A stretch of 63,121 nt of DNA, the filler included, from Hausera hauseri (Eukaryota), in the NCBI GenBank assembly GCA_046269625.1. It is 12 parts of 12 records of this genome, joined end to end, with 100 filler letters (N's around TTAATTAATTAA, not from the genome) between each part and the next. Parts side by side here need not be neighbours in the genome. Positions count along the whole stretch, not along the records: positions 1 to 4,628 come from JBJURY010497352.1; 11 more parts are not named here. The stretch is one strand, 5' to 3'. Position numbers and translations under genes: made by a program. The stretch's first letter is position 1; each line of letters opens with the position of its first letter. The notes under the pieces are model-generated. The model was not told the DNA's origin, searched no databases, and saw only the letters and a program-made list of their open reading frames with translations. Positions 1 to 48,904 of this stretch are shown here, in pieces.

Positions 1-1266
1 GGCACTAATCTAGTAACTGAACGTGTAATAATCGGTGCACTATTTGGTTGACTTCGGCTGTATTTAATAATTGTTTTATTAGACGATAAGCATAGTAATT
101 TAGTGTACATGGATCCAAGGTAATGTGTTTTTTTTTTAATTTCTGTTTTCACACCCATCAGTAAGATCTTTAGTTCCCAGGACACGGTAAGATGAGTCAT
201 GTTTAAGTGACAAAGAAACGAAAATGGCTGGGGGGCAAAAAGTTAAAAAAAAAATGTGGCACTTAGTTAAAGTCTAAAGCTACCCATATTTCCCCACCCA
301 ACAATGAAACTAATTATCCCTTCATTTTTTCCCTAGCTTGGTGCAATCCATGTCCACATTCCAGTCACCTAGCCACGCCAGCGGTGAATACTACAGGTGC
401 ATCAAGGTTCGACGATCAATTTCACGTTCAAAGGTCACTTCCATGACCAGCCTTCGTCGAAACAAATGACACTTCTCACGGTACAGCACCTGACCATTGA
501 CCCGTGACCCACATCTATCAATTGTTTCCAGCGTCACTATCGTCATTCTCCATGGTTTCTTCTCAAACCACATGGCACTCTATTTCTTATCAACGTTTCA
601 AACTCGTTTCATTTGTTTCAACGTATCACACATACAGTATCACAGTCGTCAAGATCAAGTTACCGTACAGCTATTTGTATATTTAGACACCAGGACTGAT
701 GGACACTAGCTATTACTTTTCAGATTAATGGGACACCTCGTGTACTAGCGGACTACAGAAAGAACTAGACTATAAATAATGGACCATTGTTACTACCGAC
801 CCAAAGCGCAAGTTTTCGGATGCCAAGATGGTCAAGTTTAATGACATTTTAGTGTTGCCAAGACATTCTCATTTTTTTCTCGTTGATATCATCACATGTT
901 TTAATTCAATTTGTCATTGTTGCATTTTTTTCATTCTCATTTTATTCTCGTTTATCTGCATGACTGACATTTATTATCATAAGTTTGTTTAATATTTTGT
1001 GTTGATATAATTCATATAATTTTTAGTTTCAATACTATTTTGCTTGTCCTAAGTCCTGTCAAGCCTAGCCTACTATAGATCACTGTCTATCCTGGACTCT
1101 ATTTCTATTGTTATTATGGACTGCATTTTTAGTATTTCTTTTAATGTTTTGATGTTGACATGTTAATTAAACGACCTTGTAAGGTCAGAGTGAAAGTTAA
1201 CTACGTGAGACACCTGAAGGATGCCAGATTTTGTTACTTGTAGCACATAAGATGGATCAATGTGCT

Positions 1267-1286
1267 AAAAGAGGCATGGGGGGAGT
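1267..1286 (+). promoter_or_regulatory. Polypurine tract (plus-strand primer site)
   Basis: AAAAGAGGCATGGGGGGAGT immediately precedes TGTTGTGA, the LTR start. Confidence 0.7.
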
Positions 1287-1850
1287 TGTTGTGAGGAGGT
1301 GTTGGATAAATGAGTAGGGGAGTAAAGAGGTGGGCGAAATCAAATGACCAACGCCATTAACGGGGGGTCATGGCAGGACACGCCATCTGAGGGGGGACAG
1401 CGACAGGTATAGTTTATGGGTTATGGGCGTGAGAAAGGATAGCGGACTGAACTATGTTAGACAGGGGGGTACGTGAGAAAGAGGGAGTACGGACAACTGG
1501 GGACAAGTTATAAGGACGGACAGTCGGACAGTCGGGGAGAGATTGTTGTCGGGGCTAGAGAGCGTTGCCCGTTGACGGGGCTGGAGTGTAGAGACGGGGC
1601 TGTAGAGCGGAGCCAGTTTTAGTAGAGGGGATTTGAGGACAAGAGACTGAGTGTTGTAGAGTGGATTTGCATTTATGAACTGAACATTACTTTCATTATT
1701 GTGTTTGGCATTTGCCTTGATTTGATTAAACATTATATTTGTTGTGAAGCCCCAGCCTTATTCATTGATTGTCTGGAGTGTTTGTCGAGTTACTAAGATC
1801 CCTGGTGATTGTTACGTGGAGCCCCAAATTCATCACGTAAAATCACAACA
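1287..1850 (+). repeat. LTR, about 564 bp, TG...CA with an 8-bp terminal inverted repeat
   Basis: Starts TGTTGTGA (1287) and ends TCACAACA (1843-1850). PPT lies upstream and a TGG-initiated PBS downstream. The 3' end could alternatively be the TCACAACA of a later repeat copy. Confidence 0.75.
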
Positions 1851-2017
1851 ATGGTGGAGCAGCAGACGTCTTAAGAAGACGAAGTGGACGACGTAAAATC
1901 ACAACAACTGGCGGAGCAGCAGACGTCTTAAGAAGACGTAGTGGACGACGTAATATCACAACACCCGGAGGAGCAGCAGTCGTCTTAAGCAGACGGAGGA
2001 CACGTTTATTCACAGCA
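1835..2017 (+). repeat. About 3.3 tandem copies of a 56-57-bp unit spanning the LTR end, the PBS and a hairpin
   Basis: Units start at 1835, 1891, 1948 and 2002 (partial). Approximate consensus ACGTAAAATCACAACA-N-TGGYGGAGCAGCAGACGTCTTAAGAAGACG-NNGTGGACG. Confidence 0.9.
1852..1859 (+). promoter_or_regulatory. Primer-binding site (TGGTGGAG, tRNA-Ala-like)
   Basis: Lies 1 nt after the LTR end and is complementary to a tRNA 3' end ...CUCCACCA. Only 8 nt match, so tRNA identity is tentative. Confidence 0.5.
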
Positions 2018-2812
2018 GTTATTGAGATATTGCAGAGAAGCAGAAGTTAAGAAGACGTCGCAGACATTTGAGAGACTTTTACGTTGTGTAGCAGGTCGTA
2101 TTACGCCTGAGTTTCTGAACTTTGAGGAAGTTAAGCAGCCTGTACCGGTCCCTGTGTTCCTTGAGACGGTTTACAGTGTGCAGTGTCGAGTCTACCCACT
2201 GGAGGCGAGCTGGTGGCTGACTGAGCTAGTGGAATCCTGAATCCCTAGACTAAGATAAGTGCCACATTTCAGTTTTATTACATTTTTGGAGACACCTTTA
2301 GACTCAGTTACTTAAATTGACTCTTTAGGTTATATGTTTGTCTATCGTCACTAGATAATTCTTTGCTAGGCATTAGAGTAAACCACAGCTTGGGAAATAA
2401 CCTAGGGTTAGAGGGGTGATTTCAAAATTTATTTTGTTCTCACTAAGGTTTTCCCTGTGTTTTATTTTAATATTGCTCGTTAGTTGTGATTGTTTCGTTC
2501 GTAAAACGTTTATCTCTGTCATCATCATCATCATCCTGTGTATGGTGTCATTGTTTTCTTGTTGTTCCTTCCAGTTATTTCTTCTATCGTATCACTGTCC
2601 TCAACTCATAAGTCTCACCAACAGTTCATTTTGTGTTAATTCATTCAACTCATGACAGTTTAATTTTTTTAAACTAATTCCTTGATTGTACTATAAACTG
2701 AAAGTCAGTTATTTTGTAATGTTGGTGTCTTTGTGACACAGAAGTTTAATTACGGGTTGTCTAAGTTACTAAGTTGTGCCTCACATTCAGAAAGATATAA
2801 ATAGACAGAGAA

Positions 2813-4435
2813 ATGGACCCCGATAAACTTGAGATACTTTATGATTTAGGTATGAAAATGGGCTACAAAAAGGAGGAGTTAGAAAATTGGGTGACGAAAA
2901 AGCAGGAAGAATATGAAGCCCGGGAGATAAGGAGAGAAGAAAGAGAAGCGGCGAGATTAAAAGAAGAACGAGAAGCAGCAGAAATGAAGGCAGAAAGAGA
3001 AGCAGCAATTAATCTCGATCTGCAAAAACTCGAGAAAAATAAGGAAATACAATTAAAGAAAATCGAAGCAGACAAGGAGGTTTCAAAATTGAAGATCGAG
3101 AATCAACTCAAAGAAATAGGAGCTGATCATGATATAAATTTAAATTTTTCAACCAGAAAAATTAGAGATAGAAGTAGAGAACCTCTTACTCCAAAATGGA
3201 GCCAACAAAAACAACAACATCAGCAACGTTCAAGATCGAACTTTAGAAATAGATTAAGATGTTACAGTTGTGGATCACTGTCCCACATTATGCGACATTG
3301 CCGTAAGCCTGATTACAGCTTTCAAGATAGTCAGCAAAAGTATATTTCACCTACACCTAGACAGAATAATCAAACGCACAAGTCATTAGTTACAGTCATT
3401 GAAGGAGAGCGAGAAACACTTCCCACAGTGACCACTTTTGTTAATGATAGACGAGCGGTCGGCATTCGTGATTCTGGTACTACAGTAATAGCCGTTAGGG
3501 ATACTTTAGTCCGACCACACCAATATACAGGTCGTACTAGGGGAATAGAAGTTTTTGGAGGAAAGATAAATTATTGGCCAACCGCTAGAGTTTTTGTTAG
3601 ATCACCTTACCTCATAGGACAGGTAGAGGCAGTGGTGTTTTCAAAAGGTCCTTATGACGTTATTATAGGTAACGTACTCAGTGTCAAAGTACCCACACAA
3701 CACGATAAAGAGATTTGGGAAAAATTTTACGGAAACACTAACGAGGCAAAAGCAGAAGTCAAAACTGGCGTCATTAATTTTGCTCATACGAGAGACAGAA
3801 ATGAATCTATTCAGATAAGAAGAGACAATGTTCCCATTAAAGTAACACAAAACGATGTAGCAAAAGAAGAGTCTATTTTAAGCCCAGCAGCGTGTCGCGA
3901 AATGCAAAATACCTATCTAACTATAGCAGCGATTGAAAAGTTAGTAGATCTAATCAAAGAGTTTATATGCAAGAAAGATTCACAAGTAGATCAGAAAGCA
4001 TGTGTTGAGCAGAAAGCGAGTGTAGAACAACAGAACGTTAGTGGAGAACAGAAAACTAGTCCAGACAAATTTACTGATAGCGAAGAAACTCTAACAATCA
4101 TAAGTGATAAAGAAATAACAAGACAGAGAAATAATAATCCGAAACAGGAGTTTAACATTGGAGACAACGTCTTAGTACTTTTGAGAGAGAAAATCGACAT
4201 TAAGCACAGAACATGGCAAGGCCCATATGAGGTTAAGAAAGTCTTGAATGCGGGAAAATATGAGATTGCCTTGCCAGGACAGACAACAATATTTCACAGC
4301 AATCTTTTAAAACCGTGTAATCAGCGACCCAGAGTGACTACACGTGATAGACCGTCAGTAACCGATTATGAATTAGATGATGATGAGTATAGTATAGAGG
4401 AATACACTTCAGAATTCAGACGAATGATCGACTAA
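2813..4435 (+). CDS. Deleted Gag-protease-integrase C-terminus polyprotein (540 aa)
   Basis: N-terminal E/K/R-rich coiled coil; zinc knuckle CYSCGSLSHIMRHC (3260-3301); aspartic protease motif GIRDSGTTVIAV (about 3470) with DVIIGN; integrase C-terminal module FNIGDNVLVL...WQGPYEV...FHSNLLKP (about 4150-4315). No DDE core and no RT YxDD. Confidence 0.85.
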   Translation: MDPDKLEILYDLGMKMGYKKEELENWVTKKQEEYEAREIRREEREAARLKEEREAAEMKAEREAAINLDLQKLEKNKEIQLKKIEADKEVSKLKIENQLKEIGADHDINLNFSTRKIRDRSREPLTPKWSQQKQQHQQRSRSNFRNRLRCYSCGSLSHIMRHCRKPDYSFQDSQQKYISPTPRQNNQTHKSLVTVIEGERETLPTVTTFVNDRRAVGIRDSGTTVIAVRDTLVRPHQYTGRTRGIEVFGGKINYWPTARVFVRSPYLIGQVEAVVFSKGPYDVIIGNVLSVKVPTQHDKEIWEKFYGNTNEAKAEVKTGVINFAHTRDRNESIQIRRDNVPIKVTQNDVAKEESILSPAACREMQNTYLTIAAIEKLVDLIKEFICKKDSQVDQKACVEQKASVEQQNVSGEQKTSPDKFTDSEETLTIISDKEITRQRNNNPKQEFNIGDNVLVLLREKIDIKHRTWQGPYEVKKVLNAGKYEIALPGQTTIFHSNLLKPCNQRPRVTTRDRPSVTDYELDDDEYSIEEYTSEFRRMID

Positions 4436-4628
4436 CTAAACTGTCAAGCAGAAGGTGTATAAATATGAAGTAGTATAATACTACTGATAGTAACGTAAAA
4501 ATATCCATTTCTCAGTCTTTTACTCATTCATAATGTATTTAGGTTTTTGGTTCTATGTTTGGCACTAATCTAGTAACTGAACGTGTAATAATCGGTGCAC
4601 TATTTGGTTGACTTCAGCTGTATTTAAT

Positions 4629-4728: not shown

Positions 4729-7700
4729 AGATGTAATCGTCACAGGTAGTCGTCACATGTAGTAGTCATATGTAGTCTTGACATGTAGTCGTCACATGTA
4801 GTCGTCATATGTAGTCTTCACGTGTCGTAACATGTAGTCTTCACATATAGTGGTCAGATGCAATCGTCACATGTAGTCGTCGTATGTAGTTGTCACATGT
4901 CGTGTTAACATGTAGTAGTCTCATGTTGTCGTCAGAAGTAGTCATCACATGTAGTCGCCACATGTAGTCGTGACATGTAATTGTCACATGTAGTCTTTAC
5001 ATGTATTCGTCATATGTAGTCGTCACTTGTAGTCTGTACATGTAGTCGTCACATGTAGGAGTCGCATTTAGTCTTCACATATAGTCGTCACATGTCTTCA
5101 CGTGTAGTCGTTACATGTAGCCTTGACATGTAGTCTTCACATGTAGTCATAATATATTATCGTCATATATTCGTCATATATTATCGTCACATATAGTCGT
5201 CACATATTCGTCACATAGTCATCACGTAGTCGTCACATATTCTTCACAAGTAGTCGTCACATTTATTTGTTACAGGTAGTCGTCACATGTAATCATCACA
5301 TGTAATCCTCGCGCGTAGTTGTCACATGTCGTCGAATGTAGTCGGCGCATGTACTCGTCACATCTAGTAGTCACATGTGGTCGTCACATGTAATCTTCGC
5401 ATGCAGTCATCACATCTAGTCGTCACATAGTTGTCACATATTGTCTTTACATGTAGTCGTCACATGTACTCGTCACATGTACTCTTCACATGTAGTTGTC
5501 ACATGTAGTCTTCACATCTAGTCATCACATGTATTTCTCACACGTAGTTGTCACATGTCGAATGTACTCGTCACGTGTAGTCTTCACATGTACTCGTCAC
5601 TTGTAATCCTTACATGTAGGCGTCACATGTAGTCATCACATGTAGTTGTCACATGTAGCCGTCACATGTACTCGTCACATGTCGTCACATGTAGTCGTCA
5701 CATAGTTGTTACATGCGTCCTCAGATGTAATCGTCACAGGTAGTCGTCACATGTAGTAGTCATATGTAGCCTTGACATGTAGTCGTCACATGTGATCGTC
5801 ACATAGTTGTTACATGCGTCCTCAGATGTAATCGTCACAGGTAGTCGTCACATGTAGTAGTTATATGTAGTCTTGACATGTAGTCGTCACATGTAGTCCT
5901 CACATGTAGTCGTTATATGTAGTCGTCAGATGTAATCGTCACGTGTAGTCGTCAGATGTAATCGTCACGTGTAGTCGTCACATGTAGTCCTCACATGTAG
6001 TTTTCACATGTAATTACATGTAGTCGTCACATGTAGTCTTCACATGTAGTCTTCACATGTAGTTGTCACATATCGTAACATGTAGTCTTTACATGGTCGT
6101 CACGTATAGTCTTCATATGTAGTCCTCACATGTCGTCACATTTATTTGTCACATGTAGTCGTCACGTAGTCGTCACATGTAGTCCTCACATGTAGGAGTC
6201 ACATGTAGTGTTTACATGTAGTCGTCACATGTCGTCACATGTAGTCGTTACATGTAGCCTTGACATGTAGTCTTCACACGTAGTCGTCACATATTCGTCT
6301 CATATACTGGTCACATGTAGTAATCATATATTATCGTCATATTCGTCATATATTATCGTCGCATATAGTCGTCACATATTCGTCACATAGACATTACGTA
6401 GTCGTGACATATATTCTTCACATGTAGTCGTCACAAGTAGTCGTCACATTTAGTCGTCACATGTAGACTTCACATGTAGTCATCACATGTAGTCCTCACA
6501 CGTAGTTGTCACATGTCGTCGAATGTAGTCGTCACATGTAGTCGTCACATGTAGTCTTCACATGTAGTCGTCACATGTAATCGTCACATGTAGTCGTAAC
6601 ATGTAGTCGTCAGATGTAATAGTCACAGGTAATCGTCACATGTATACTTCACATGTAGTCCTAACATGTCGTCATATATAGTCGTCACATGTAGTCGTCA
6701 CATGAGATCGTCACATAGTCGTTACATGCGTTCTCAGATGTCATCGTCTCAGGTAGTCGTTACATGTAGTAGTCACATGTAGTCTTTACATGTAATCGTC
6801 ACATGTAGTCTTTATATGTACTCGTCAGATGTAATCGTCACGTGTAGTCGTCACATGTAGTCTTCACATGTAGCCGTCACATGTCGTCGCACGTATTCGT
6901 CACAGTCTTCACATTTAGTCGTCATATGTAGTCTTTACGTATCGTATCATGTAGTCTTCACATATAATCGTCTGATGCAATCGTCACATCTAGTCGTCGT
7001 ATGTAGTTGTCACATGTCATCTTAACATGTAGTAGTCACATGTTGTCGTCAGAAGTAGTCTTCACATGTAATCGTCACTTTTATTCGTCACATTTAGTCG
7101 TCACATGTACTCGTCATATGTAGTCGCCACATATAGTCGTCACGTGTACTGGTCACATGTACTCTTCACATGTACTCGGCACGTAGTAATCACATGTGAT
7201 CGTCACATGTAGTCCTCACACGTGGTTTGCACATGTTGTCGTCAAATGTAGTCGTCTCGTGTAGTTGTTACATGTAGTCTTCACATGTAGTGGTCACATG
7301 CAGTTGTTACATATAGTCGTCACATGTAGTTGTCACATGTGATCTTCACATGTTGTCACATGTAGTCGTCATATATAGTCGTCACATGTAGTAGTCACAC
7401 GTGATCGTCACATTTTGTCGTCACATGTAGTCGCCACATGTGATCGTCACATGCAGTCGTCACATGTAGTCATCACGTGTAGTCACCACAGGTACTCGTC
7501 ACATATAGTCTTCGCATGTAGTCGTCACATCTAGTCGTCATATAGTTGTCACATATTGTCTTCACATGTAGTCGTCACATGTAGTCGTGACATATAGTCG
7601 TATCATGTAATCGTCACGTGTAGTCTTCACATGTACTCGTCACATGTACTCGTTTCATGTAGTTGTCACATGTAGTCTTCACATATAGTCATCACATGTA

Positions 7701-10580
7701 ATCTTTACATGTGGTCGTCACATGTAATCTTTACATGTGGTCGTCACATGTAGTCTTCACGTGTAGTGGTCACATGTAGTCGTCACATATAGTCGTCACA
7801 TGTAGTCGTCACATGTGATTGTCACATGTAGTCGTCACATAGTCGTCACGTGTAGTTGTGACATGTAGTCGTTACACGTAGTCGTCACATGTAGTGGTCA
7901 CATATTGTTGTCACATAGTCGTCACATGTAGTCGTCACATGTAATCGTCACATGTAGTGCTCACATGTAGTTGTCATATGTAGTCGTCACATGTAGTTGT
8001 TATATGTAGTCGTCACATGTAGTCATCACATGTAGTCGTCACATGTAGTCTTCACATGTAGTCGTCACATGGAGTCGTTACATGCAGTCGTCATATGTAA
8101 TCGTTACAGGTAGTCATCACATGTATACGTCACATGTAGTCGTCACATGTCGTGACGTGTAGTAGTCACATATAGTCGTCACATGTAGTCGTCACATGTC
8201 GTCACATATATTCGTCATATGCAGTCGTCACATGTCGCCGTCGTATGTAGTCGTCACATATCGTCTTAACATGTAGTCGTCACATGTCGTCAGAAGTAGT
8301 CTTTACATGTAATCGTAACATTCGTCACATTTAGTCCTAACATGTAGTCGTCACGTAGTCATCACATGTAGGCGTCACATATAGTATTGAAACGTACTCG
8401 TCACATGTACTCATCACATGTACTGGGCACATTTAGTTGTTGCATGTGGTCGTCACATGTAGTCTTCCCATGTAGAAGTCACATGTAGTCGTCACATATA
8501 GTCTTCACATGTAGTGATCATAGGCATTCGTCACATGTAGTCATCACGTGTAGTCGCCATATGTACTCGTCACATAGTCTACGTATGTAGTCGTCACATC
8601 TAGTCGTCACATATATTTGTTACATATTGCCTTCACATTTAGTTGTCACATATAGTCGTATCATGTAATCGTCACGTGTAGTCTTCACATGTACTCGTCA
8701 CATGTCGTCACATGTAATCGTTACATGTAGTTTGACATGTAGTCGTCATATATTCGTTACATAGTCATATCATGTAGTCGTCACATATTTCTCACATGTA
8801 GTCGTCACATTTAGTCATCACATGTAGTCTTCATATGTAATCATCACATGTAGTGTTCACACGCAGTTGTCACATATCGTCGAATGTAGTCGTCACGTGT
8901 AGTCGTCACATGTCGTCACATGTAGTCGTTACATGTAGCCTTGACATGTAGTCTTCACATGTAGTCGTCACATATATTCCTTACATGTAGTCGTCACATT
9001 TATTCGTTACATGTAGTCGTCACATGTAGTCATCACACGTATTTGTCAGACGTAATTGTCACATGTCGTCGAATGTAGTCGGCACATGCACTCGCCAAAT
9101 CTAGTAGTCACATGTGGTCGTCACATGTAGTCTTCACATGTAGTGATCATATGCATTCGTCTCATGTAGTCATCACGTGTAGTCGCCACGTGTACTCGTC
9201 ACAGCCTACGCATGTAGTCGTCACATTTAGTCGTCACATATAGTTGTTACATATTGTCTTCACATGTAGTCGTCACATATAGTCGTATCATGTAATCGTC
9301 ACGTGTAGTCTTCACATGTAGTCGTTACATGTAGTTTGACATGTAGACGTCACATTTAGTCTTCACATGTACTCGTCAAATGTCGTCACATGTAGTCGTT
9401 CCATGTAGTTTGACATGTAGTCGTCACATATTCGTCACAGTCATATCATGTAGTCGTCACATATTCCTCACATGTAGTCGTCACGTGTAGTCGTCACATA
9501 TCGTAACATGTAATCGTCACATAGTCACACATATAGTCGTCATATGTAATCGTCACATATAGTCTTCACATGTAGTGATCATATGCAGTCGTCACAAGTA
9601 TTTGTCACATGTAGTAATCACATGTGTTCGTCACATGTAGTCCTCACACGTGGTTGGCACATATTGTCGTCAAATGTAGTCGTCACGTACTCGTCACATC
9701 TAGTCGTCACATGTAGTCGTTACATGTAGTCGTCACATGTAGTCATCTCATGTAGTTGTCACGTGTAGTCGTCACAAGTACTCGTCTCATGTAGTAATCA
9801 CATGTGGTCGTCACATGTAGTCCTCACACGTGGTTGGCACATGTTCTCGTCAAATGTAGTCGTTACATGCAGTCGTCACATATAGTGGTCACATGTAGTC
9901 GTCACATATGATCGTCCCATGTGGTCGTCACATGTAGTCGTCAGAAGTATTCTTCACATGTAGTCGTCACATGTAATCGTCACATGTCGTCATATGTAGT
10001 CGCCTTATGTAGTCGTTGCATGTTGCCTTGACATGCAGTCTTCACATGTAATCGTCACATATATTCCTTACTTATCGACGTCCTGTGGTCATCATATATA
10101 ATCGTCACATTCGTCATATATTATGGCCACATAATCGTCACATATTCGTCACATAGTCATCACATGTAGTCATCACAGATATTCTTCACATGAAGTCGTG
10201 ACATTTAATCGTCACATTTAGTCGTCACACGTAGTCGTCACATGTCGTCACATGTGGTCGTCACATGTAGTCTTCACATGTAATTGTCACATGTAGTCTT
10301 TACATTTAGTCGTCATACGTAATCGTCACAGGTAGTCGTCACATGTAGACGTCACATGTAGTCTTCACATGTGGCCGTGACATGTCGTCACATGTAGTCG
10401 TCACATATAGTCCTCATATGTAATCGTCACATATAGTCTTCACATGTGATCATATGCAATCGTCACAAGTACTCGTCACATGTAGTAATCACATGTAGTC
10501 GTCACATGTAGTGGTCACATATAGTCGTCACATATCGTAACATGTAGTCTTCACACATTCGTCACATATAGTCGTCACAT
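4729..10580. repeat. 13-bp satellite, consensus GTAGTCGTCACAT, about 5.85 kb (roughly 450 units)
   Basis: Continuous degenerate tandem array filling the whole contig; ACATGT palindrome at unit junctions; no ORFs. Confidence 0.97.
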
Positions 10581-11699
10581 NNNNNNNNNNNNNNNNNNNN
10601 NNNNNNNNNNNNNNNNNNNNNNNNTTAATTAATTAANNNNNNNNNNNNNNNNNNNNNNNNNNNNNNNNNNNNNNNNNNNNCCTACGTGAATGGGGTCTAG
10701 TTAGAACAAAATTTAAAGTTTTTAATCCAACTAATTTATCAACAATGTGTTTTCTCCAAGTATAAATTGTCGCAATTTCATAGTAAACAACCACTTCAGT
10801 TGTGTTTTTACAAATATTTACAATGTTTTTACCATAAACAACGGTACAAATATCTGGTAACGACATAATGAACTTGTTTATTTTATCTTCTACATGTAAG
10901 TATATGAGTCTTTTAATTATATAATATTTGTTTAACGGATTAAACCTTCCAACAGATAGTTAGTTACTTTTTTGTATTTAATTTTTCCAACTATCTGTTG
11001 CAATGATTTTATAGGTCTGGCGCGATATAAATATATAAAAATTTTTGTAAAGAATTTTGAGAAGACTGGAATTATTTTTATAGCATTTAATGCATAGTTT
11101 AAGAAGACAACATGAATATTTTGCAATTTTTGCCAATGAATTTTTACGCAATATTTATCAGAGGGGAATCTAGAGTGGGGAGCGGGGACGGCTAACGATA
11201 ATATATAAAACAATGTAGAATAACTGACCTTTCTTTTGTTTAACGGCTCACTCTTTCCTTTGCCCTGGTGTTCCGTGGTTCCGGTTGTAAATTCGTTCCT
11301 TTCACTTCGGCTTGGATTAACGTGAAAAGAAGCACATTCAAAGGTTTTCCCGGTATTGGTTCGAATTTTTGTACATCTAGAATTGTAGATTTAGATCGTC
11401 TTCGCAAGCTCTTTTAGTGTCAGCTGAAATAAAAATTATATCGAATTTTTAAGGGGATTCGGAACCCATCCAAATCAATCATTGTGGCTCTTAAGAAAGC
11501 CGTTAACATTCCAAGAGCTCTTCTGAATCCGAATTCGGTTGATGTTTATTAATTTTAGGTATTTCGGATCGAATAGTGTCGATACTTTTTTGCCATCAAC
11601 AAGACTAGTCATACAATTGGCCGATAGCAAATTCATCGACTCCAAGTGATCCGAACAAAATTTTACATGGAATCTTGTTACGGGAACCGCTAAAACTGT

Positions 11700-13267
11700 T
11701 TTGTCGTTGATTTTCTTGTCCTTTTTGTGCGCCAGCAATTTTCTTGTAATCCCATTTGCAATATTCACTTCGTTATTCAGTTCTTTTTGCCGATACGCTT
11801 GATAATCATGTGCTACCGGATACGAAATGACAGACGCTAACTTCATCGTGTTCCGGATCTCGACGATGAAACTCCCTGGGATAATTCCTCTGTGATGGAT
11901 AGCATTATCAGATGTAAGAGTTGCAAGAAAACGCCCAGACATTCGTAAATAACGGTGAAAATATAGCTTTTCTTGTCACAGCCTTCGAATTGTTTGGCAT
12001 ACTCGATATAAACATCACAAAATTCGTGTAACCAGAATTGGTACATGGTTTTTGTAAGATTGGATAAATTGTAAATCTCGAACAATGCATTTGTTTCACA
12101 AGCAGTTCCACTCAACCGGGAAAAATTCATTTGTCTACGGACGACAATTGACAATAAGTGTCACTCATGTCTTAAGGCACGAATGTTTTCACCGAACTCA
12201 ATATGTGACAGAATCGAAACAATTGCCAAGTCTTATTGCAAAAATTCCAGTATCCATTAACAGCAAGAACGTTCAAATTGAAATCTTTCACTTGTTCCGT
12301 GTAATTTTTCAACGCAATTCGCAACGCATCTATATCGCACTGCGGAATACCAGTTAGGAAATCTTTTGCTTGACACAATTTGCTTTTTTCCAATTCTTTG
12401 TGATCGAGATCATCAAAATTCAACGGATTTTGAAGATCGGCCAGACTTATTCTACGAATGCCGTTTAGGGGAACGAGTACGTTTCCTAATGACTTACTCA
12501 CTTTCTTTGCATGAGTATCACGAACCATAGCATGCAAATAAATGGTGCTGAATGGTAATTCATCAGTCAATTTCAGACCGGTCATGACCACCCGGGCAAC
12601 CCAAAGGAAGGGAATATCATGGCCAGTCTCCATGAGACGTCCAGGATAGAATTTATCTAAATCTCCTGTAGTTTTTGGCTCACCCATTGTAGCTAATAGA
12701 AACAATTGTCATGCGAATCAAGCACCCAACACGTCTGCATCCTGTATCAGATTTGTTTCCGATTCTGGAATATTAAATTGTTTTGCAGTGTTCCGTATGG
12801 CTTCTCGTCCACGTCGTCCAACAATCCATTTGGTATTTTCATCGGATATTTCAGTACCATCCATTCCATTGGTTACTTTGTATATTGGAATCTGACGACC
12901 CCACCACAGTTGTCGGGGAATATACCAATTATGACAATCACTTAGACATTGAACCAAATACAATCGTGAACACTTTCCGGCAAGATTTTCAATGGACCAT
13001 ATTTAAAAACCTGCTTAGTTGTGTTTACCATGTCCGGGCATCTCACAAACCACTGGTAATTTATCATAAGTTCGATAGCATCTTCGCTTTTTTATTGTAC
13101 TGCGAACTTGTCGTTCGTTTGAAGGTTTCGTTCCAAAATTGTTGCCGTCGGAATCCTATCCGTGGCAAAGTCGGTTATCAACACATTTCGATTTCTCGGA
13201 TAGAAAACGAAATTTTTATGCAAAGAAATCCTGTCCTTGCGCCACGAACTTCCCAACGTTCTCCATG
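11700..13267 (-). pseudogene. VARS: Valyl-tRNA synthetase pseudogene (central and C-terminal part, intronless, several stops and frameshifts)
   Basis: YQWFVRCPDM; WYIPRQLWWGRQIPIY; QDADVL; FYPGRLMETGHDIPFLWVARVVM; KMSKS motif changed to KVSKSLGN; anticodon-domain GYWNFCNKTW and YQFWLHEFCDVYIEYAK. Fragments lie in different frames. The 3' boundary is approximate. Confidence 0.9.
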
Positions 13268-19659: not shown

Positions 19660-22600
19660 GTTAATTGATCTGTCTGTACCGATTTCTTCTGTGCGTACCC
19701 AACTATTATTCCGCCCTACCAACTTACGCTTGTTATCACTGCATGATAAAGCGACTTTTGAATTTGTCACCGTATACAGCCGGTGCTCAATCGATCGTAT
19801 GATCATTTGTAACACAACAGTCTTTGATTGTCCTCCGTCTCCTCCACCTTCTTCATAGACACGGCGATAATCACCGTGGTCGATTTCCGTCTAAGCCAAC
19901 TGAACTCCTTTGGCGCGCATTTTCAGTCTACAGTCAATTAAAAAGCTGTAACATTTTGGCCGTAGAAATATCCATTCCCAATACCGGACACGACCTTTAC
20001 TTTAATCCTTTAAACAGCCGATTTTGTTTGTGATGGCATTGCTGTACAATGGGTGATTCTGTGGGTAGTTGGACGTGTCCAGTAATCCGTCTGCCATCAT
20101 TTGATGCAGAAGTTGTTCGCGATTGACGTTTTCCAGTTCCAAGAAAAAACTGTTTGTGTTACCGGCAATTATATTGATCCTGCCGCCTCCGTCGGCGCCG
20201 CCAAACATTTGCCGGTAACGTGCCAAATCGCGATATTGGAGCTCATACATTCGCAACTTGCTCAGATCCAATAACACTTGTCCTATATAACTTGACCGGT
20301 ACAGTACGATTTCTTCTCTGTTTAAAAGCACGGCAACCAATCCATCGACAATGTGCATTGATCGCCTGAATTGCGTCTTGCTCGTGAACGTGACCAACCG
20401 CTTTTCGATATTACATAGGCGTACATTGAGCCGTTTTTTCAAATTCTTTGCTGTTTTTCGTACAGGGAATTGTTTTTTCAGCTTGTATTAGTCTTTTTCA
20501 AACTTTGTACAAGCTGCGGCTCGTTTTTCCGAATTTCCATCTATGTACGCCTCGAATATGGTAACCTGAGCAAATCGTGTTGCGCGATGTAGCCGTGTAG
20601 CATAAACCCAACTGCATGTAAAATTGCAACAGATGCCAATGAACTATGTAATTTTGCTTGGGTTCGTGCGTCATAAGCAGCTTCTTCATCTTAAAATCCG
20701 GCGGACATTGGCTAATTTGTTCGACTGGTAATTCATCCAGAAAGTCATGCAGCTCATCTGGTACCACGAGATCGATTTCCATCAGGTATCCGATTGAGCT
20801 GTTTTCTGCTGTTGTCGTATCTGCCCTCGATAGATTTTTCATTATTGTGTCCAGGTCCTGTTTGTCGACTACTCATTCGAATAAACTGTACGACAAGGGT
20901 TGTGAAAGCGCCCAGCCGTAAAGGTTATTAATGTCGATATACAACAATGATGTGGTATCATCACTGGTTACGTAATGCTTGTTGACAAATGTCATGCCGC
21001 CACGAATAACAAAATCAAACATTCGGTACATTTCAGGGTCTTGGAATAGCTTGATATTTCGATCCACTGACATCAAAGCTGACGCCCAACTCATTCCAGG
21101 TATTGAGTAAAAGTTAAATGGCTCCAGCCTATCTTCTGCCAACGATTTAGCTCGAAATGTCTGAAACACATCGGCTAATAGGTACACGTCCAATTTCAGA
21201 TACTGAAGTATGTAGTCCAACAGGTTTCTGCAACCAAGCTCTGCCAAAAACAACTGTTCTTTGTGGTATTTTTCTTCTGTGATACCGGGCCATTGCGGTC
21301 GCAATTCCTCTGTTGTCTGGAGCCGCTCGTACGATATCGAAAAGTCATACGGGAATATGCCTTTGCTGCATGCAATATGTGTGGGGAACTGAGTCAATGT
21401 TAGCGGAACATCTGGCAAGGTATTTACCAGCATTGCCAGAGATTCATTGAGAAATTGCAATGAATGAAGGAAGCGTACCTAAAACCAGTTAATACGAGCA
21501 GACAGTGACAAGTATTTCTCCATCGTAGTAGGAATTATAGATAGTTTTCAGTGTAGATATCCGTTTTTGGCCCATTTTAAAATATAGTGACAGTCACAAC
21601 CCCGGAAGTTATAAAATACTACCAGCAGAAATGGCTTCACACGCCTTGCCAAATTGCACGAATTGTATGCTGCTCCGAGATATCAACCAGTAAAGTGGTA
21701 GTGAGCCAGTACGAGCCGTTTGTGTGCATCAAACGGTAATATTTTGTGGCACAAGTAACATTCATCTGTGACTCAAACGTCTGGCGTTCGTTTTCATTTG
21801 TTCACATCAAAGGTTTGTTGCTATTTCTACTGTACCAGGGTGCGATTTCCGTTTCTACTATTGTTTCCAACTGTTGCAGGAAATCACATACACAGTTCCA
21901 GCCATGAAAAACGTAATATCGTTGTTAATCTGCGGATTTTATTGGGACAACCAATATATCGACGGCGATTGGAACATGTTTTTGGTCATATATATTGTTC
22001 TGTGGTAAGATAGCTTTGATATTGGCATATACTACACATACCGGACTTTCTGTTTTTGATCAATCAGTGAACCTTAGTTCCTTTTTGATGGGCATGACAT
22101 ACAGTGTTGTTCCCGATGAATTTTGTCTGCATAGTGTCACGTGTTTCTCTTATGTTGTTTCCGACATGAATCCATGCAGACATACAGGACACCATTTACA
22201 ACGTATACGCTTTTCGATGAACTGGTCATGTTCCATGTTAAACAGTCTGTCCAAATTTGTCACGGCCACGTAATAAAATTTTTCCCCATCCTTTTTCACT
22301 AACAACAACAAATTTATTGGGCGTCCATTCGGGTTCTGACATCTATAGATTACGTCTACATAAGGATTCTTGTAAATCTCTTTGTCTGTCGATATTTCTA
22401 CAATTGTGTTGTACCGGAAAACGTTAATTGACAGTGTCCGGTTACGCCGTTCAAAAGTCGGAATGGTTTTCAGTTTCATCGGCATCCAACATTCATCAAA
22501 GCCCAATTCGGAAAAATACTGCCGATACTGATTTGGACGATATGCATTACGTCTATCCACTTGGTCATATTTTAACCCGGCAAGAATACTGTAAATGAAA

Positions 22601-23208
22601 TAGTATTCGTTGTCAGAATTTTTTACATTTGCTACCGCATAAGAATGCTTTAGAGCTCTAGGTGTCGCTATGAATGATTGCCCGGACAAGTAAATTATAT
22701 CACTCGACTTTGTTATAATAAAGCCAAGAGTGACAATTTTTATAATTTGCCATTCACTATCCTTTTCGGTGTAGTTGGCGATTTTTTCGTCGAGCTTTTC
22801 GCTTACATCGGAAATAAAATAGTGGGAATACGGTTCGACTCGATGTGACAGGTACCATTGTTTCCTGACACCCTGCAGATTTTCTAATTCTGCAAGTGCA
22901 TAATATTGCACTTTGCAATGGTGATGTTGTTTGATTTTCTCCACTTCGGATTCCGACCGGTTGCGCACACTATGCGGAACATATCTCAACTACGTTGTTG
23001 TTATTTTCGCCACCGACATGTTTGCTTTTATATCCACGTACGATCTGTTCATATCGTACTTGACTGTATTATTGGACAGATTGACATCCTGTTGCTCCTG
23101 TTGTTGTTGATGTTGATGATGCTGTTCCTGCTGCTGCTGCTGCTCGGTACTGTTTCTGATTAAGACATCAAGACTTGTTGAGGCCTGACGTTTCCTACTG
23201 GTTGTTGA

Positions 23209-23480: not shown

Positions 23481-26400
23481 TTTATTGCGTTATACATACA
23501 CGAAACGTTGCAAATACAAGGAATATATGTGCGGAAATTTGGGTAAAATTTGGAAATAAAGCAAACTTGAAATGAATGAGCAAGAAGGCGGTGGTTTCTC
23601 TTGTTGCAAGCGTTTAAATTCTCTGAATTTCTTGCTTTATACATGTATAACACTGTGCAAATACAAGGAAAACATGCGCGGCAATTTGGGAAAAATTTGG
23701 AAATGAAGCAATATGGAAATGTAGGAGCAAGAAGGCGGTGTTTTCTCTTCTTTTAAACGTTTACATACGCTGCATTTTTTGCCCTTTATATGTAAAAATC
23801 GTTGCAAATACAAGGAAAACATGCAAGGCAATTTGGATAAAATTTGGAAATGAAGCAAAATGGAAATGAAGGAGCAAGAAGGCGGTGTTTTGTCTTCTTG
23901 GAAACGTTTAAATGCGCGGCATTTATTGCGTTATACATACACGAAACGTTGCAAATACAAGGAGAACATTTGTTGGAATTTGGATAAAATTTAAAAATGA
24001 AGCAAAATGGAAATGAAGGAGCAAGAAGGCGGTGTTTTCTCTTTGTGCAAGCGTTTAATACGCTGATTTATTTTGTTGTACATATATTATACGTTGCAAA
24101 TACAATGGATGCATGTGCTTCAAATTGGGTAAAGTTTGGAAATGAAGCAATGTGGAAATTACGGAGCAAGAAGGCGGTGTTTCTCTTGTTGCAAGCGTAT
24201 AAGTGGGCCGCATTTTTTGCGTTATACACACACGAAACTTTGCAAATACAAGGAAAACATGTGCGGCAATTTGGATAAAATTTGGAAATGAAGCAATATG
24301 GAAATGTAGGAGCAAGTAGGCGGTGTTTTCTCTTCTTTTAAACGTTTAAATACGCTGCATTTTTTGCCCTTTATATGTAAAATACGTTGCAAATACAAAG
24401 AAAACATGCACGGCAATTTGGATAAACTTTGGATATGAAGCAAAATGGAAATGAAGGAGCAAGAAGGCGGTGTTTTGTCTTTTTGCAAACGTTTAAATGC
24501 GCGGCATTTATTGCGTAATACATACACGAAACTTTGCAAATACAAGGAGACCATGTGCTGCAATTTGGGTAAAGTTTGAAAATGAAGCAATATGGAAATA
24601 AAGGAGCAAGAAGACGGTGTTTTCTCTTCTTGTAAACGTTTAAATACGCTGCATTTATTGCGCTGTACATGTAAAAAACGTTGCAAATACAAGGAAAACA
24701 TGCACGACAATTTGGATAAAATTTGGAAATGAAGCAAAATGGAAATGATTGAGCAAGAAGGCGGTGGTTTCTCTTGTTGCAAGCGTTTAAATGCTCTGAA
24801 TTTCTTGCTTTATACATGTATAACACTTTGCAAATACAAGTAAAACATGTACGGCAATTCGGGTAAAATTTGGAAATGAAGCAAAATGGAAATGAAGGAG
24901 CAAGATGGCGGGGTTTTCTCTTGTTGCAAACGTTTAAATGCGCTGCATTTATTGCGCTCTACATGTATAAATCGTTGCAAATAGAAGGAAATCATGAACG
25001 GCAATTTGGATAAAATTTGGAAATGAAGCAAAATGGAAATGAAGGAGCAAGAATGTGGTGTTTTCTCATGTTGCAAATGTTTAAATACGCTGCATTTATT
25101 GCGTTATACATACACGAAACGTTGCAAATACAAGGAATATATGTGCGGAAATTTGGGTAAAATTTGGAAATGAAGCAAGCTTGAAATGAAGGAGCAAGAA
25201 GGCTGTGGTTTCTCTTGTTGCAAGCGTTTAAATGCTCTGAATTTCTTGCTTTATACATGTATAACACTTTGCAAATACAAAGAAAACATGTGCGGCAATT
25301 TGGGGAAAATTTGGAAATGAAGCAATATGGAAATGTAGGAGCAAAAAAGCGTGTTTTCCTCTTGTTGCAAACGTTTAAGTACGCTGCATTTATTGCGTTG
25401 TGCATGTAAAAAACGTTGCAAATACAAGGAAAACATGTACGGCAATTTGAATAAAATTTGGAAATGAAGAAAAATGGAAATGAAGGAGCAAGAAGACGGT
25501 GTTTTGTCTTCTTGCAAACGTTTAAATGCGCGGCATTTTTTGCCCTTTATATGTAAAAAACGTTGCAAATACAAGGAAAACATGCACGGCAATTTGGATA
25601 AAATTTGGAAATGAAGCAAAATGGAAATGAAGGAGCAAGAAGACGGTGTTTTGTCTTCTTGCAAACGTTTAAATGCGCGGCATTTATTGCCTTATACATA
25701 CATGAAACGTTGCAAATACAAGGAAAACATGTGCTGCAATTTGGGTAAAGTTTGGAATTGAAGCAATATGGAAATAAAGGAGCAAGAAGGCGTTGTTTTC
25801 TCTTCTTGCAAACGTTTAAATCCGCGGCATTTATTGCGTTATACATACATGAAACGTTGCAAATACAAGGAAAACGTGCACGGCAATTTGGATAAAGTTT
25901 GGAAATGAAGCAAATTTATTGTGTTGTACATATATTATACGTTGCAAATACAATGGATGCATGTGCGGCAATTTAAGTAAAGTTTGGAAATGAAGCAATA
26001 TGGAAATGAAGGAGCAAGTAGGCGGTGTTTCCTCTTGTTGCAAACGTTTAAATACTCTGCATTTATTGCGTTATACATACACGAAACGTTGCAAATACAA
26101 GGAGAACCTGTGTTGGAATTTGGATAAAATTTGGAAATGAAGCAAAATGGAAATTAAGGAGCAAGAAGGCAATGTTTTCTCTTGTTGCAAACGTCTACAT
26201 GCGCTGCATTTATTGCGCTCTACATGTATAAATCTTTGGAAATACAAGCAAATCATGTACGGCAATTTGGATAGAATTTGGAAATGAAGAAAAATGGAAA
26301 TGGAAGAGCAAGAAGGCGGTGTTTTCTCTTGTTGTTAACTTTTAAATACGCTACATTTATTGCGCTATACATAAAAAAAAACGTTGCGCATTAAAGAAAA

Positions 26401-29400
26401 ACATGTATTGCAATTTGAGTAAAATTTGGAAATGAAGCAAAATGGCAATGAAGGAGCAAAAAAGCGTGGTTTCCTCTTGTTGCAAACTTTCAAATACGCT
26501 GCATTTATTGTGCTGTGCATATACTACACGTTGCAGATACAAGGAAAACATTTGCGGCAATTTGTATAAAATTTGGAAATGAAGCAAAATAGAAATGAAG
26601 GATCAAGAAGGCGGTGTTTTCTCTTGTTGCAAACATTTTAGTGCGCCAAATTTATTGCGCTATACATACATTAAACGTTACAAATACAAGTAACACATGT
26701 AAGGCAATTTGGATAAAATTTGGAAATGAAACAAAATGGAAATGAAGGAGCAAGAAGGAGGTGTGTTCTCTTGTTGCAAACGTTTAAATGCGCTGCATTT
26801 ATTCCGCACTACATGTGGAGAACTTTGGAAATACAAGGAAAACATGTACGGCAATTTGGATAGAATTTGGAAATGAAGCAAAATGGAAATGAAAGAGCAA
26901 GAAGGCGGTGTTTTCTCTTGTTGTAAGCGTTTAAGTGCGCTGCATTTATTGCGTTGTACATGTATAAAACATTGCAAATACTAGGAAAACATGTACGGCA
27001 ATTTGAATAATATTTGGAAATGAAGCAAAATTGAAATAAAGGAGCAAAAAAGCCTGGTTTCCTCTTGTTGCAAACGTTCAAATATGCTGCATTTATTGTG
27101 TTTTGCATATACTACACGTTGCAAATACAAGGAAAACCTTTGCGGCATTTTGTATAAAATTTGGAAATGGAGCAAAATTGCAATGAAGGATCAAGAAGGC
27201 TGTGTTTTCTCTTGTGGCAAACATTTTAGTGCGCCGAATTTATTGCCCTATTCATACATCAAACGTTGCAAATACAAGGAAAACATGTACGGCAATTTGG
27301 GTAGAATTTGAAAATGAAGCAAAATGGACATGAAGGAGCAAGAATGCGGTGTTTTCTCTTGTTGCAAACGTGCTAGTTTGCCGACTATATTGCGTTATGC
27401 ATATACGACTCTTTGCAAATACAATGGAAACATGTGCTGCAATTTGAGTAATGTTTGGAAATGAAGCAATATGGAAATGAAGTAGCAAGAAGGCGGTGTT
27501 TTCTCTTGTTGTAAACGTTTAAGTGCGCTGCATTTATTGCGTTGTACATGTAAAAAACATTGCAAATACTAGGAAAACATGTACGGCAATTTGAATAATA
27601 TTTGGAAATGAAGCAAAATGGAAATGAAGGAGCAAGAAAGCGGTGTTTTCTCTTGTTGCAAACGTTTAAATGCGCTGCATTTATTGCGCTGTACATGAAA
27701 AAAACGTTGCAAATACAAGGAAATCATGTACGGCAATTTGGATAAAATTTGGAAATGAAGCAAAATGGAAATGCAGGAGCAAGAAGTCGATGTTTTCTCT
27801 TGTTGCAAACGTTTAAATGCGCTGAATTTTTTGCGCTATATATGTATAAATTTGTGCAAATACAAGGAAAACATGCGCGGCAATTTTGACAAAATTTGGA
27901 AATAAAGCAAAGTGGAAATGATGAGCAAGAACGCGGGGTTTTCTCTTGTTGCAAACGTTTATTGCGCGAATTTGTTGCAATATGCACGCATGAAACGTTG
28001 CAAATACAATGAACTCATGTACGGAAATTTGGATAAAATTTGGAAATGAAGAAAAATGGAAATGAAGGAGCAGGAAGGTGGTGTTTTCTCTTGTGGCATA
28101 CTTTTCATTGCGCCGAATGTATTGCGCTATGCATACATGAAACGTAGCAAATACAAGGAAAAGTGTGCGCAAATTTGGGCAAAATTTGGAAATGAAGCAA
28201 AATGGAAACGAAGGAGCAAGAAGGCGGTATTTTCTCTTCTTAAAAACGTTTAAATACGCTGCACTTATTGTGCTATATATGTAAGAAACGTTGCAAGTAT
28301 AACGAGAACATGCACGGCAATTTGGGTAAAATTTGGAAATGAAACAAAATGGCAACGTAGGAGCAAGAAGGCGGGGTTTTTCTTGTTATAAACGTTTAAA
28401 TACGCTGCATATATGGTGCTATATATGTAAAAAACGTTGCATATATAAGGAAAACATGCACGGCAATTTGGATAAAATTTGGAAATGAAGCAAAGTGGAA
28501 ATGAATCAGCAAGAAGGCGGTGGTTTCTTTTGTTGCAAACATTTATGTACGTTTGTTTTAATGCACTGTCACGTAAAAGCTTTGCAAATACAAGGAAACA
28601 TGTTCTGCATTGGGTAAAATTTGGAAATGAAGGAGAATGGAAATGATTGAGCAAGATGGAGGTGTTTTATCTTGTTGCAAACGTTTATATGCACTGAATT
28701 AATGGCGTTATAAATGTATAAAACTTTGCATATACAAGGAATACATATACAGCAATTTGGGTAAAATTTGGAAATGAAGCAAAAGGGAAATGAAGGAGCA
28801 AGTAGGCCGTGTTTTCTCTGGTTGCAAACGTTTAAATACGCAGCATTTATTGCGTTATACATATGCGATACGCTGGAAATACAAAGAAATCATATGCTGA
28901 AATTTGGATAAAATTGGGAATGAAGCAAAATGGAAATGAAAGAGCAAGATGGCGATGTTTTCTTTTATTTAAAACCTTACATACCCTGCCTTTATTGCGT
29001 TATACATATGCGATACGTTGCAAATAAAGGAAATAAGGTGCGGCAATATTGGGTAAAACTTGGAAATGAAGCAAAATGGAAATGAAGGAGCAAGTAGGCG
29101 GTGTTTTCTCTTGTTGCAAACCTTTAAATACACAGCATTTATTGCGTAATACATATGCGATACGTTGGAAATACAAGGAAATCATAGGTGGAAAATTGGG
29201 TAAAATTTGGAAATGAAGCAAAATGGAAATGAAGGAGCAAGATGGCGGTGGTTTCTCTTGTTGCAAACGTTCAAATACACTGCACTTATTGTACTATATA
29301 TGTAAAAAACGTTGCAAATACAAGGAAAACATGTGCGGCAATTTGGGTAAAATTTGGAAATGAAGCTAAATGGAAATGAAGGAGCAAGAAGGCGGTGGTT

Positions 29401-46868: not shown

Positions 46869-48904
46869 TTAATATTCATTGAGCCAATCGCTGGCTGCTC
46901 GTTCAAAATCATCGAATCCAGTCAGAGTCTGAGTTTCATCGATATCATCTGGAAACTCAAGTTTATTTTCTTCAACCCAAGATGTTGTTCCATCTCCGTT
47001 ATCAACTCGAATTCTTTGTCGAACTTTGTTGGGTAATTTGGCTGTGACTTGTGCTAAACTGTCTTCATCACCAAAATTCTCCTCAAACTCTTTCCATTGA
47101 TTCAACAGCAATTCCCGCTGTGCATTGTCCATATTACGCAATGACGTATTCGCCCTACGAAATATCTCCCGTCCACGCGATACCGCCAATTCCGCACTGT
47201 CATCATCATCCGGATCGAATGTTATGAGCTGCATTCGTGCGTAACTAATCCAAACCAATGCATGTTCCTCAATCTCCAACAGTCGCTCATGAAGCCGCCA
47301 ACATCGATCATACTCTTCCAGACTCGCTTCAAAATCGATGTAACTTTTCCACACAAACGACGGTTTCTCCAAATCCGTTTTCAAAGCATTCTCATAAATC
47401 TCACGAACTCGTTCGTTTTCCTTTACTCTCTGTTCAAATTTCGCATATTCAATCCATGACAAATGGTATGATGGACAGAATGTGATGAATTTCACAAATA
47501 ACTGCCGCACTCGGTCAAATTCCAGCAATGTCGTTTCCATTTCTATGTAATGACGAAAAAGTTTATTTTTCGGACATCGACCCAATGCATTGCCAAATAT
47601 TTTACGAGCAGCACTAAAATTTTCTTGACGAATTTCCAATTCAGCGAGGTAAATCCAAATTTTGGCGAATGTGAATTTTCGATGGGGAATGTGAGTCAGA
47701 CAAACAGTGTAGATTTCTCGTGCGCGACTGGGATTTTCGCATCGTAATTCTTCAAAAATTGCATATTTTATCCATAGATAAATATATCGACGCCAGTAAT
47801 ATTTTTTCTCTATAAGCGGTTTGTTCGCGATTGCTCGTTCGTATAGAGTTCGTATTTCATAGGGATCCTGTTTCTCCTCTTCCATCATCGATAGGTAACT
47901 AAACCATTCGTCGTAATTGTATTTATCTTCTGCAACCACCTTCTCGTAATGATATTTACGTTTGATCACGATCGAATCTTGAATCGTCATTTTATCACCA
48001 AACTTTTTCTCGTATTCGTGATATGCCTTGTAAATTTCCTCTGACAGACTTTTTGGTAAATTGTCCAAAGCATATTTGAATATCGCTTTTACACGTTCGT
48101 GTTCTCTCTGTCGTTCTTCGAACTTCGCGAATTCGATCAAAATGAGTGCTGGGGGATTTTCTTTGCCGAAATAATTCACCGCGGACTCGTAAACACTTCT
48201 TGCTATATCAATTCGACGACTTCTCTCTTCAAATTTTCCCCATTTGACCCAATTCTGTTCTGTCTGGTGAACTTGCACGAACTTCTTATAGATCTCATGA
48301 GCATTGTCTAATTCACCATAGCGAGTTTCCATATTAATAAATGTTTGCCATGCTTGTTCGTCTGGTTCCCAGCGCATCCAATTTTTGAAAATCCTTCTGG
48401 CCACTTCAATATTTTTCATTTTCTGTTCCATATATACGTATTTATACCATAGTTGATTTTTTCTGGGTAAAATTTTCAATGCTCGATCAAGAATATTTCT
48501 AGCATGGTTTATTTGCTTACACTCTATTTCCATCTCAGCATACTTGACCCATAATTCAACGTGTTGATAACGCAAATTGAACGCTCTTTCAAATACGTTT
48601 CGAGCTTTTATTATTTCACCCTGTGATTTTTCAAATTGGGCATATCTCTGAAATGTTGACAAACTCTTTTCACTTTTTCTAAGGTTGTTTTCGAAGTTTT
48701 GTCTCTTCTGTTGTTGATATTCTCTTTTCTCAGCATCTGTTGTTATTTTTGTTGCGGTGGTTTTGGTGTGGATTCAAGTTCACGCTCTTTGGCTTCGCGC
48801 AAAAGCTGTTCCGCGGTTATTTGAATTGGAGCTGGTGTTTTATTACGAACTTTCATTGTTTTCGGTCGTTTCCCAAGGGTAACATTTTCGTCATTAAAAT
48901 TCAT
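46869..48904 (-). CDS. CRNKL1: Crooked-neck/Clf1 pre-mRNA splicing factor (HAT repeats), with a one-base frameshift near 48745
   Basis: KVRNKTPAPIQITAEQLLREAKER; ARNVFERA; LWVKYAEME; NQLWYKYVYME; YWRRYIYLWIKYAIFEEL; IPHRKFTFAKIW; GRCPKNKLFRHYIEME. No introns apparent. Confidence 0.92.

Follow-up and report, generated by a model that had tools for sequence, protein, structure and literature searches.

A putative non-autonomous Gmr1-type Gypsy element that lacks a capsid and keeps an open Gag-protease frame

Within the window, the whole 63,121-nucleotide stretch of Hausera hauseri DNA (assembly GCA_046269625.1) that was analyzed, we identified an LTR element that appears, from its sequence, to be an internally deleted, non-autonomous derivative of a Gmr1-type Gypsy element. 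Its single ORF is missing the capsid, the integrase core, RT and RNase H, and these losses are likely old. With these domains missing, the element cannot move alone, nor can it be placed by its RT. We tentatively favor the reading, at a probability of roughly 45%, that this is a helper-dependent element with old losses, whose ORF is selected because the protein helps its own RNA to ride in the particles of an autonomous relative.

Architecture and cis signals of the element

Short contigs with linkers of N between them make up the window, which has 16 N-free segments, and the element is the first of these (positions 1–4628; all of its features lie on the + strand). The first 68 bases of this contig (1–68) are a direct repeat of the last 68 (4561–4628), with 67/68 identical, a property unique among the 16 segments; the contig is a circularly permuted or collapsed element. 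It holds one 564-bp LTR without flanks. A contig with one LTR and a 68-base end repeat cannot display two LTRs and a target-site duplication. Read as a circle, the contig comprises 4560 bp in the order LTR, PBS-like site, leader, ORF, non-coding interior, polypurine tract (PPT) and LTR again, and the element measures ∼5.1 kb when both LTRs are counted. The contig may stem from an insertion whose two LTRs were collapsed, from tandemly arrayed copies or from a one-LTR circle.

The LTR (1287–1850) starts with TG, ends with CA and has a perfect 8-bp terminal inverted repeat, with TATAA at 1509 and ATTAAA at 1725. Its 3′ end is independently fixed, since a contig of sequencing run X1 that carries a related LTR (4 substitutions and 2 gaps relative to that of the window) departs into another flank exactly at 1850. 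The PPT (1267–1285; 17/19 purines) lies one base 5′ of the LTR, and the PBS-like site (1852–1859), which starts with TGG, lies one base after it. Thus, the cis set of a non-autonomous LTR retrotransposon is present. An earlier note on this DNA had called the cis signals intact, and this stands for the LTR ends and the PPT, although the contig has only one LTR and the PBS is recognizable only as a TGG-start motif. A tRNA gene search of the whole window found none. At 1835–2014, the LTR end and PBS recur in tandem, in approximately three copies of 57 bp (TRF period 57, 2.8–3.2 copies, 85–91% matches), the later copies being degenerate. The second one retains TGG at its start and might offer an additional site for priming.

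From the stop codon to the LTR, the element is non-coding for ∼1.41 kb. This interior begins at 4436–4628, ending there in the 68-bp terminal repeat, and continues at 69–1266; six-frame and tblastn searches found no RT or RNase H remnant in it, and an Rfam search gave no match. We also considered a captured host gene, and rejected it when a Pfam scan of 12 of the 25 short ORFs in the non-coding parts gave no match above cut-off.

Other contigs of the window hold a variety of sequences. At 49321–49823, another Gypsy integrase remnant, broken and comprising the end of the core and SH3, belongs to a different element and draws at least 35 tblastn matches from the homologs. Long tandem arrays extend over 4729–10580 and 23481–31727, with periods of 13 bp and 147 bp, and broken pieces of a protein-primed-type DNA polymerase B (PF03175) at 20002–22989 suggest a Polinton-like relic. 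Fragments without introns, derived from a class I tRNA synthetase and a dynein heavy chain (11475–12708 and 58700–62584), look like decayed retrocopies. Two long ORFs without interruptions, one encoding a crooked-neck-like HAT protein and the other an importin-alpha-like protein (46869–48773 and 50661–51764), could be intron-poor genes, retrocopies or another organism's DNA. Finally, the bacterial-looking contig at 39500–43870, dense with genes (a radical SAM/BATS protein, a class V aminotransferase and Fe-S assembly-like ORFs), is likely a contaminant or symbiont.

Domains retained and lost

The unbroken 540-codon ORF reported in the earlier note was confirmed at 2813–4435, and its profile alignment is that of a capsid-less Gag-protease-integrase-tail fusion. 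A homolog search against 1.84 billion representatives returned 796 matches, the best 150 of which were used. Full-length homologs among these best 150 of 796 have the order Gag(SCAN-type capsid)-CCHC-PR-IN-RT-RH. Against a profile of 41 Gmr1-type homologs, the ORF aligns in three colinear blocks, with aa 5–93 corresponding to profile positions 4–89, aa 120–378 to 298–553, and aa 432–523 to 874–965. The gaps between the blocks reveal what is missing, namely ∼208 positions of capsid and ∼320 positions comprising the integrase H2C2, core and connector. Everything from profile position 966 on, corresponding to RT and RNase H, is absent as well.

The first block carries the short helix and the long charged helix of a Gmr1-type Gag N terminus (aa 3–104; 2819–3124), a predicted coiled coil modeled with a pLDDT of ∼90 or more. 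This is followed by a CCHC zinc knuckle with all four ligands present (aa 150–163; 3260–3301) and by a retropepsin-type aspartic protease (aa 205–291; 3425–3685) with catalytic D220 in a DSG motif. An AlphaFold model based on a 76-row alignment places only helices 3–15 and 20–104 before the knuckle, a confident protease at aa 201–300 (pLDDT ≥90), and a beta domain at 441–500 that represents the SH3-like tail. Single-sequence prediction is poor past aa 104. A two-copy fold prediction of aa 1–104, for which the alignment was not used, scored 0.01. The top matches of the predicted protease in a PDB structure comparison are retroviral proteases, and the domain looks intact and normal in the model. 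Pfam gave only sub-threshold matches, to the knuckle and the integrase tail (PF22938 and PF24626 for the latter), and the leads from an ESM Atlas search with the ORF were all under 0.9. The earlier note had characterized the ORF as a set of interaction modules; the predicted coiled coil, CCHC, protease and integrase tail are indeed there, but the description overlooked that the best-kept part is the protease.

Downstream of the protease, a spacer and helix remnant (aa 292–378; 3686–3946) precedes the site of the lost integrase zinc finger. This remnant had been described as short, yet the profile match extends to ∼aa 378, beyond the 13 aa quoted previously. In place of the integrase zinc finger and core is an unalignable linker (aa 379–431; 3947–4105), which includes four to five diverged in-frame 18-bp repeats at 3986–4075. 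The integrase C-terminal SH3 (GPY/F) tail (aa 432–505; 4106–4327) is strongly diverged and keeps its core motifs (48 bits to the profile), with 13/18 conserved columns preserved as compared to 10/10 in the protease. The acidic end (aa 506–540; 4328–4435) that had also been pointed out is present, and it matches the normal IN-RT linker, of which it is a remnant reaching profile position 965 before the stop.

After the protease come the SH3 tail and the IN-RT linker, an arrangement shared with PR-IN-RT homologs that supports the Gmr1-like origin proposed previously. The available text of two papers on the Gmr1 clade of Ty3/Gypsy places integrase upstream of RT (PMC8220671, PMC6238403), and the colinearity of the ORF with Gag-CCHC-PR-IN-RT-RH homologs is its likeness to that clade, whereas the absence of capsid, integrase core, RT and RNase H sets it apart. 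With no RT left, it is the protease tree, which includes no named Gmr1 reference, that places the element among those with PR-IN-RT order. The SCAN-type capsid expected of a Gmr1-type Gypsy element is absent, and the element is therefore a derivative rather than an autonomous Gmr1 member; without RT, RNase H or catalytic integrase, it is also non-autonomous.

Several searches confirm that the ORF leaves no room for a capsid. A capsid-only profile (87 rows) gives −5.3 bits with the ORF as compared to 180–189 bits in 4/4 capsid-bearing controls, and the first CCHC motif begins at aa 150 rather than at the 276–510 observed in 65/65 full-Gag homologs. The AlphaFold mapping that the earlier note had suggested agrees, as it shows no capsid fold beside the confident N-terminal helices, protease and SH3-like tail. 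Likewise, the integrase-core profile (69 rows) finds no domain in the ORF, and this profile, the homolog profile and the six-frame search confirm the claimed loss of integrase core, RT and RNase H. Outside the ORF frame, six-frame and tblastn searches of 1–4628 detected nothing left of capsid, IN or RT, the sole off-frame exception in the six-frame search being a 2-bit match over the coiled coil.

The 53-aa junction linker aligns to neither parental flank (27/200 shuffles score as well), which is unlike a fresh cut. For the same reason, we set aside the idea that aa 375–431 form a diverged integrase connector. A post hoc comparison of aa 419–438 with the region preceding the zinc finger in P0003 was matched by 25/500 shuffles, and other targets aligned elsewhere.

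It could be argued that the assembly collapsed a longer element and merged parts of it in this contig, as the earlier note had cautioned, and the circular permutation with its 68-bp end repeat does indicate some repeat collapse. However, among contigs of a single run, X1, which may or may not derive from the window's own sample, one of 736 nt crosses the capsid junction (capsid-loss zone aa 94–119; 3092–3169) with 1 difference and no gap, and another of 224 nt extends without difference from the post-protease region to 146 nt inside the linker. X1 contigs have no loose ends within the ORF, and the frame is open across both junctions. X1 cover is absent in bins 3256–3410 and 4186–4340, and no listed contig bridges aa 428–432. 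With contigs over the capsid junction and into the second linker, an assembly artefact is very improbable.

Age of the losses and maintenance of the frame

Single losses are common among homologs. Among the best 150 of 796 matches, 4 of the 76 with N terminus and protease lack a capsid (two of these four are NCBI gene models, which may skip broken parts as introns), and the integrase core is missing from 10 of the 84 that have both protease and SH3. In-frame deletions alone are thus weak evidence of selection, although the earlier note had used them to argue for selection rather than decay. These frequencies agree with the element being an ordinary young deletion derivative, a copy of some unsampled parent that suffered two in-frame cuts, lost its 3′ part and has a functionless frame that is open for lack of time. 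Nonetheless, both deletions together occur in 0 of the same 150, and the unalignable junction linker and the lack of RT or RNase H remnants in the 1.4 kb that follow the ORF also count against recent origin.

A comparison of evolutionary rates between the protease and the SH3 domain points to greater age. In a branch test using a fixed tree of the query and 68 intact homologs, the protease branch of the query has a length of 0.64, which is ordinary in that 32/68 intact homologs have branches as long or longer. In contrast, its SH3 branch of 1.46, from an alignment of only 58 columns, is equaled by 0/68. The resulting SH3/PR ratio of 2.3, versus 0.70 tree-wide, is reached by 0/62 tips with a protease branch >0.3, and it exceeded the tree-wide ratio in 24/25 bootstraps. 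Similarly, the best SH3 identity of the query to an intact element is 45%, lower than that of any of the 68 intact elements (minimum 48%). Nine other integrase-core-less homologs have ratios of 0.25–1.12 in eight cases and 2.19 in one, with the query at 1.97 in this comparison, where P0096 and P0127 were aligned with gaps and P0057 was left out. The ratio of 2.19 belongs to P0127, an integrase-core-less ORF with a strongly accelerated SH3 tail. The nearest relatives of the query also have a fast SH3 (distance ratios 0.80–0.90 vs 0.94), and its long SH3 branch could stem from recombination with an unsampled lineage.

An ordinary protease rate combined with an accelerated SH3 points to an old deletion whose frame was kept open, and an SH3 so unlike the tail of a working integrase argues against a recent core cut. 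The SH3 excess of ∼1 substitution per site would correspond to >10% nucleotide change. In neutral simulations (n = 1000), the frame stays open in 2 at 10% divergence and in 0 at 5% with indels, such that the SH3 excess implies drift far beyond what a neutral ORF of this size would withstand. Thus, the ORF is likely kept by selection, as judged by this comparison of sequences, and the rate asymmetry and neutral-survival estimate lend indirect support to that part of the earlier claim. We interpret the SH3 tail as a relic under relaxed constraint, not as a functional module.

Some observations favor a young derivative instead. At 0.5% neutral divergence, the frame remains open in 37–67% of simulations. 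The 4 ORF differences detected in run X1 are all amino-acid changing, which fits neutrality (chance 0.40) and counts against selection, with 3 of them coming from depth-2 contigs and maybe being errors. X1 depth is 3.5–5.9 for ORF contigs as compared to 21.5 at the LTR start, a ∼4-fold difference that is not a copy number and that does not provide the satellite-like copy-number support sought after the earlier note; it gives a weak hint that copies of the element are few. Weighing this evidence against the SH3 divergence and the absence of double deletions among the best homologs, we consider a young derivative unlikely.

The same frame could also be retained for the sake of the RNA, with a late stop codon guarding the transcript from nonsense-mediated decay or licensing its packaging and the amino acids being of minor importance. 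This would explain the in-frame junctions, the drifting SH3 and the 18-bp linker repeats, in which 6 synonymous and 26 non-synonymous codon differences reveal no synonymous excess. However, a protease with all 10 conserved columns and an ordinary rate, and a knuckle with its four ligands, speak against an ORF whose residues are of little consequence, and the stop codon is in any case followed by 1.41 kb of non-coding 3′ sequence. We therefore regard this explanation as improbable.

Run X1 also holds variant LTR, leader and 3′ pieces. Just past the stop codon, at 4476–4531, an X1 variant has 8 differences in 56 bases beside long difference-free stretches, a patchy pattern that may be due to copies having recombined. 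Protein and metagenome searches turned up no parent or close relative, the best protease identity being 43%, and the same searches revealed no autonomous partner sharing LTR ends and PBS, such as the earlier note had anticipated. Metagenome scans gave no locus, and word-index protein searches with the ORF returned only P0002 and nothing longer. The homologs indicate an animal host, and the nearest named capsid-bearing relatives are from the snails Physella acuta and Biomphalaria glabrata.

Capsid-less relatives, known counterparts and possible function

Two other lineages, represented by P0153/P0021 and P0028/P0155 from ENA contigs, have a coiled coil, knuckle and protease with no trace of a capsid, and their ORFs have a predicted helical tail after the protease. 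The query, both lineages and capsid-bearing Physella proteins form one protease clade, with support of 98/89 in a 52-row tree, whose rows were chosen from 143 with a full protease, and 88/89 in an 18-row tree. The sister pair P0153 and P0028 (support 100/98–99) has only 53/86 protease residues in common, and hence the capsid-less state is probably long-lived in these lineages. Each has two open variants (287/297 and 596/602 identical). The best trees require two capsid losses within the clade, and a single common loss, though not demonstrated, is not rejected either (AU p = 0.106, 18-row tree). The five capsid-less rows did not form a single clade in the 52-row tree, with 5 changes versus a shuffled mean of 4.9.

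The catalytic motif of P0028 is DTR, and its protease is probably inactive, judging from this sequence. P0153 and P0028 both lack the SH3 tail, and a word-index search with the P0153 region found only P0021. Given the missing tail, the DTR motif and the fact that they are known from ORFs without DNA context, these lineages may be host genes. A broader proposal, which we find doubtful, is that Gmr1-type elements repeatedly gave rise to long-lived capsid-less satellites consisting only of the Gag N-terminal docking helix, knuckle and protease, with the query, P0153 and P0028 as members. The N-terminal helices would then be a capsid-independent assembly handle, sufficient to bring a passenger RNA into a helper particle.

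Selected ORFs in non-autonomous LTR elements have precedent in the available text of PMC2410132 and PMC11302176. TR-GAG and GAG/PROT-only elements of plants, in the portion of PMC13570524 at hand, are non-autonomous LTR elements that encode a Gag-protease ORF and lack RT, RNase H and integrase. The query resembles them in keeping an ORF of the Gag-protease type without these enzymes, but it belongs to an animal Gmr1 lineage, its capsid is gone, and it carries an integrase SH3 tail as an in-frame fusion. RLG_Quinta, the partner of RLG_Cereba, keeps GAG, is proposed to contribute it, and has 935 full-length copies (PMC11302176, as excerpted). Like the query, Quinta is a long-lived non-autonomous element with an intact ORF, LTR ends, PBS and PPT. 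Unlike Quinta, with its GAG, known partner and 935 copies, the query has lost the capsid, keeps the protease, has an apparently low copy number, and has no partner found. With the capsid part of Gag gone, it cannot supply particle protein as TR-GAG elements or Quinta could. In pol-less Athila, gag or env ORFs were found by codon models on close copies to be under purifying selection (PMC2410132, in extract). These copies are likewise non-autonomous with open frames thought functional, whereas the evidence for the query is a rate asymmetry between two domains. What is new, relative to the passengers as these papers describe them, is that the capsid is dropped instead of kept, the reverse of elements that retain the particle protein.

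A further possibility is that the host has kept the ORF as a restriction factor at a low-copy, possibly fixed locus, with the capsid-less Gag-protease poisoning or prematurely cleaving related Gmr1 particles. The low apparent copy number and the signs of an old, kept frame agree with this idea, and truncated Gag proteins that restrict retroelements are known, including Ty1 p22 (PMC4599808) and DRT2 (PMC10951436). Like these, the query protein is a truncated Gag derivative that could act on the particles of a related element. However, as the sections of those papers available to us describe them, p22 and DRT2 consist of or contain the capsid C-terminal domain and act through it, and that domain is absent from the ORF, which keeps only the parts on either side of the capsid. 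Moreover, an old domesticated gene would presumably have no need of intact LTR ends, PPT and PBS-like site. A host-kept restriction factor is thus quite unlikely.

In the helper-dependent reading that we prefer, the LTR would drive one transcript, and the protein would use its CCHC knuckle to bind, in cis, the RNA that encodes it. Its N-terminal helices of Gag origin might then join the homologous region of helper Gag. Within the particle, the protease could dimerize and cut the passenger protein or add processing capacity, and a passenger protein that is cut would, we propose, not block the lattice. Helper RT and integrase would finally copy and insert the RNA by means of the retained PBS, PPT and LTR ends. 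Assembly of retroviral-type Gag proceeds mainly through the capsid, which counts against the entry of a capsid-less protein into particles.

In the literature searched, which left most subscription journals outside and is no proof of absence, we found no capsid-less, protease-keeping Gmr1 element and nothing on the Gmr1 Gag coiled coil. Known non-autonomous LTR elements, as presented in the papers cited above in part, keep Gag, and the explanation given is that they donate particle protein to their helper. If the element is merely a young wreck, it matters little. If it is selected, a capsid-less element with knuckle and protease needs another explanation, such as cis hitch-hiking or interference. 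Elements lacking both RT and capsid would presumably escape domain-based annotation. If our reading is true, this one would be a natural deletion experiment, pointing to a role for the uncharacterized N-terminal helices of Gmr1 Gag.
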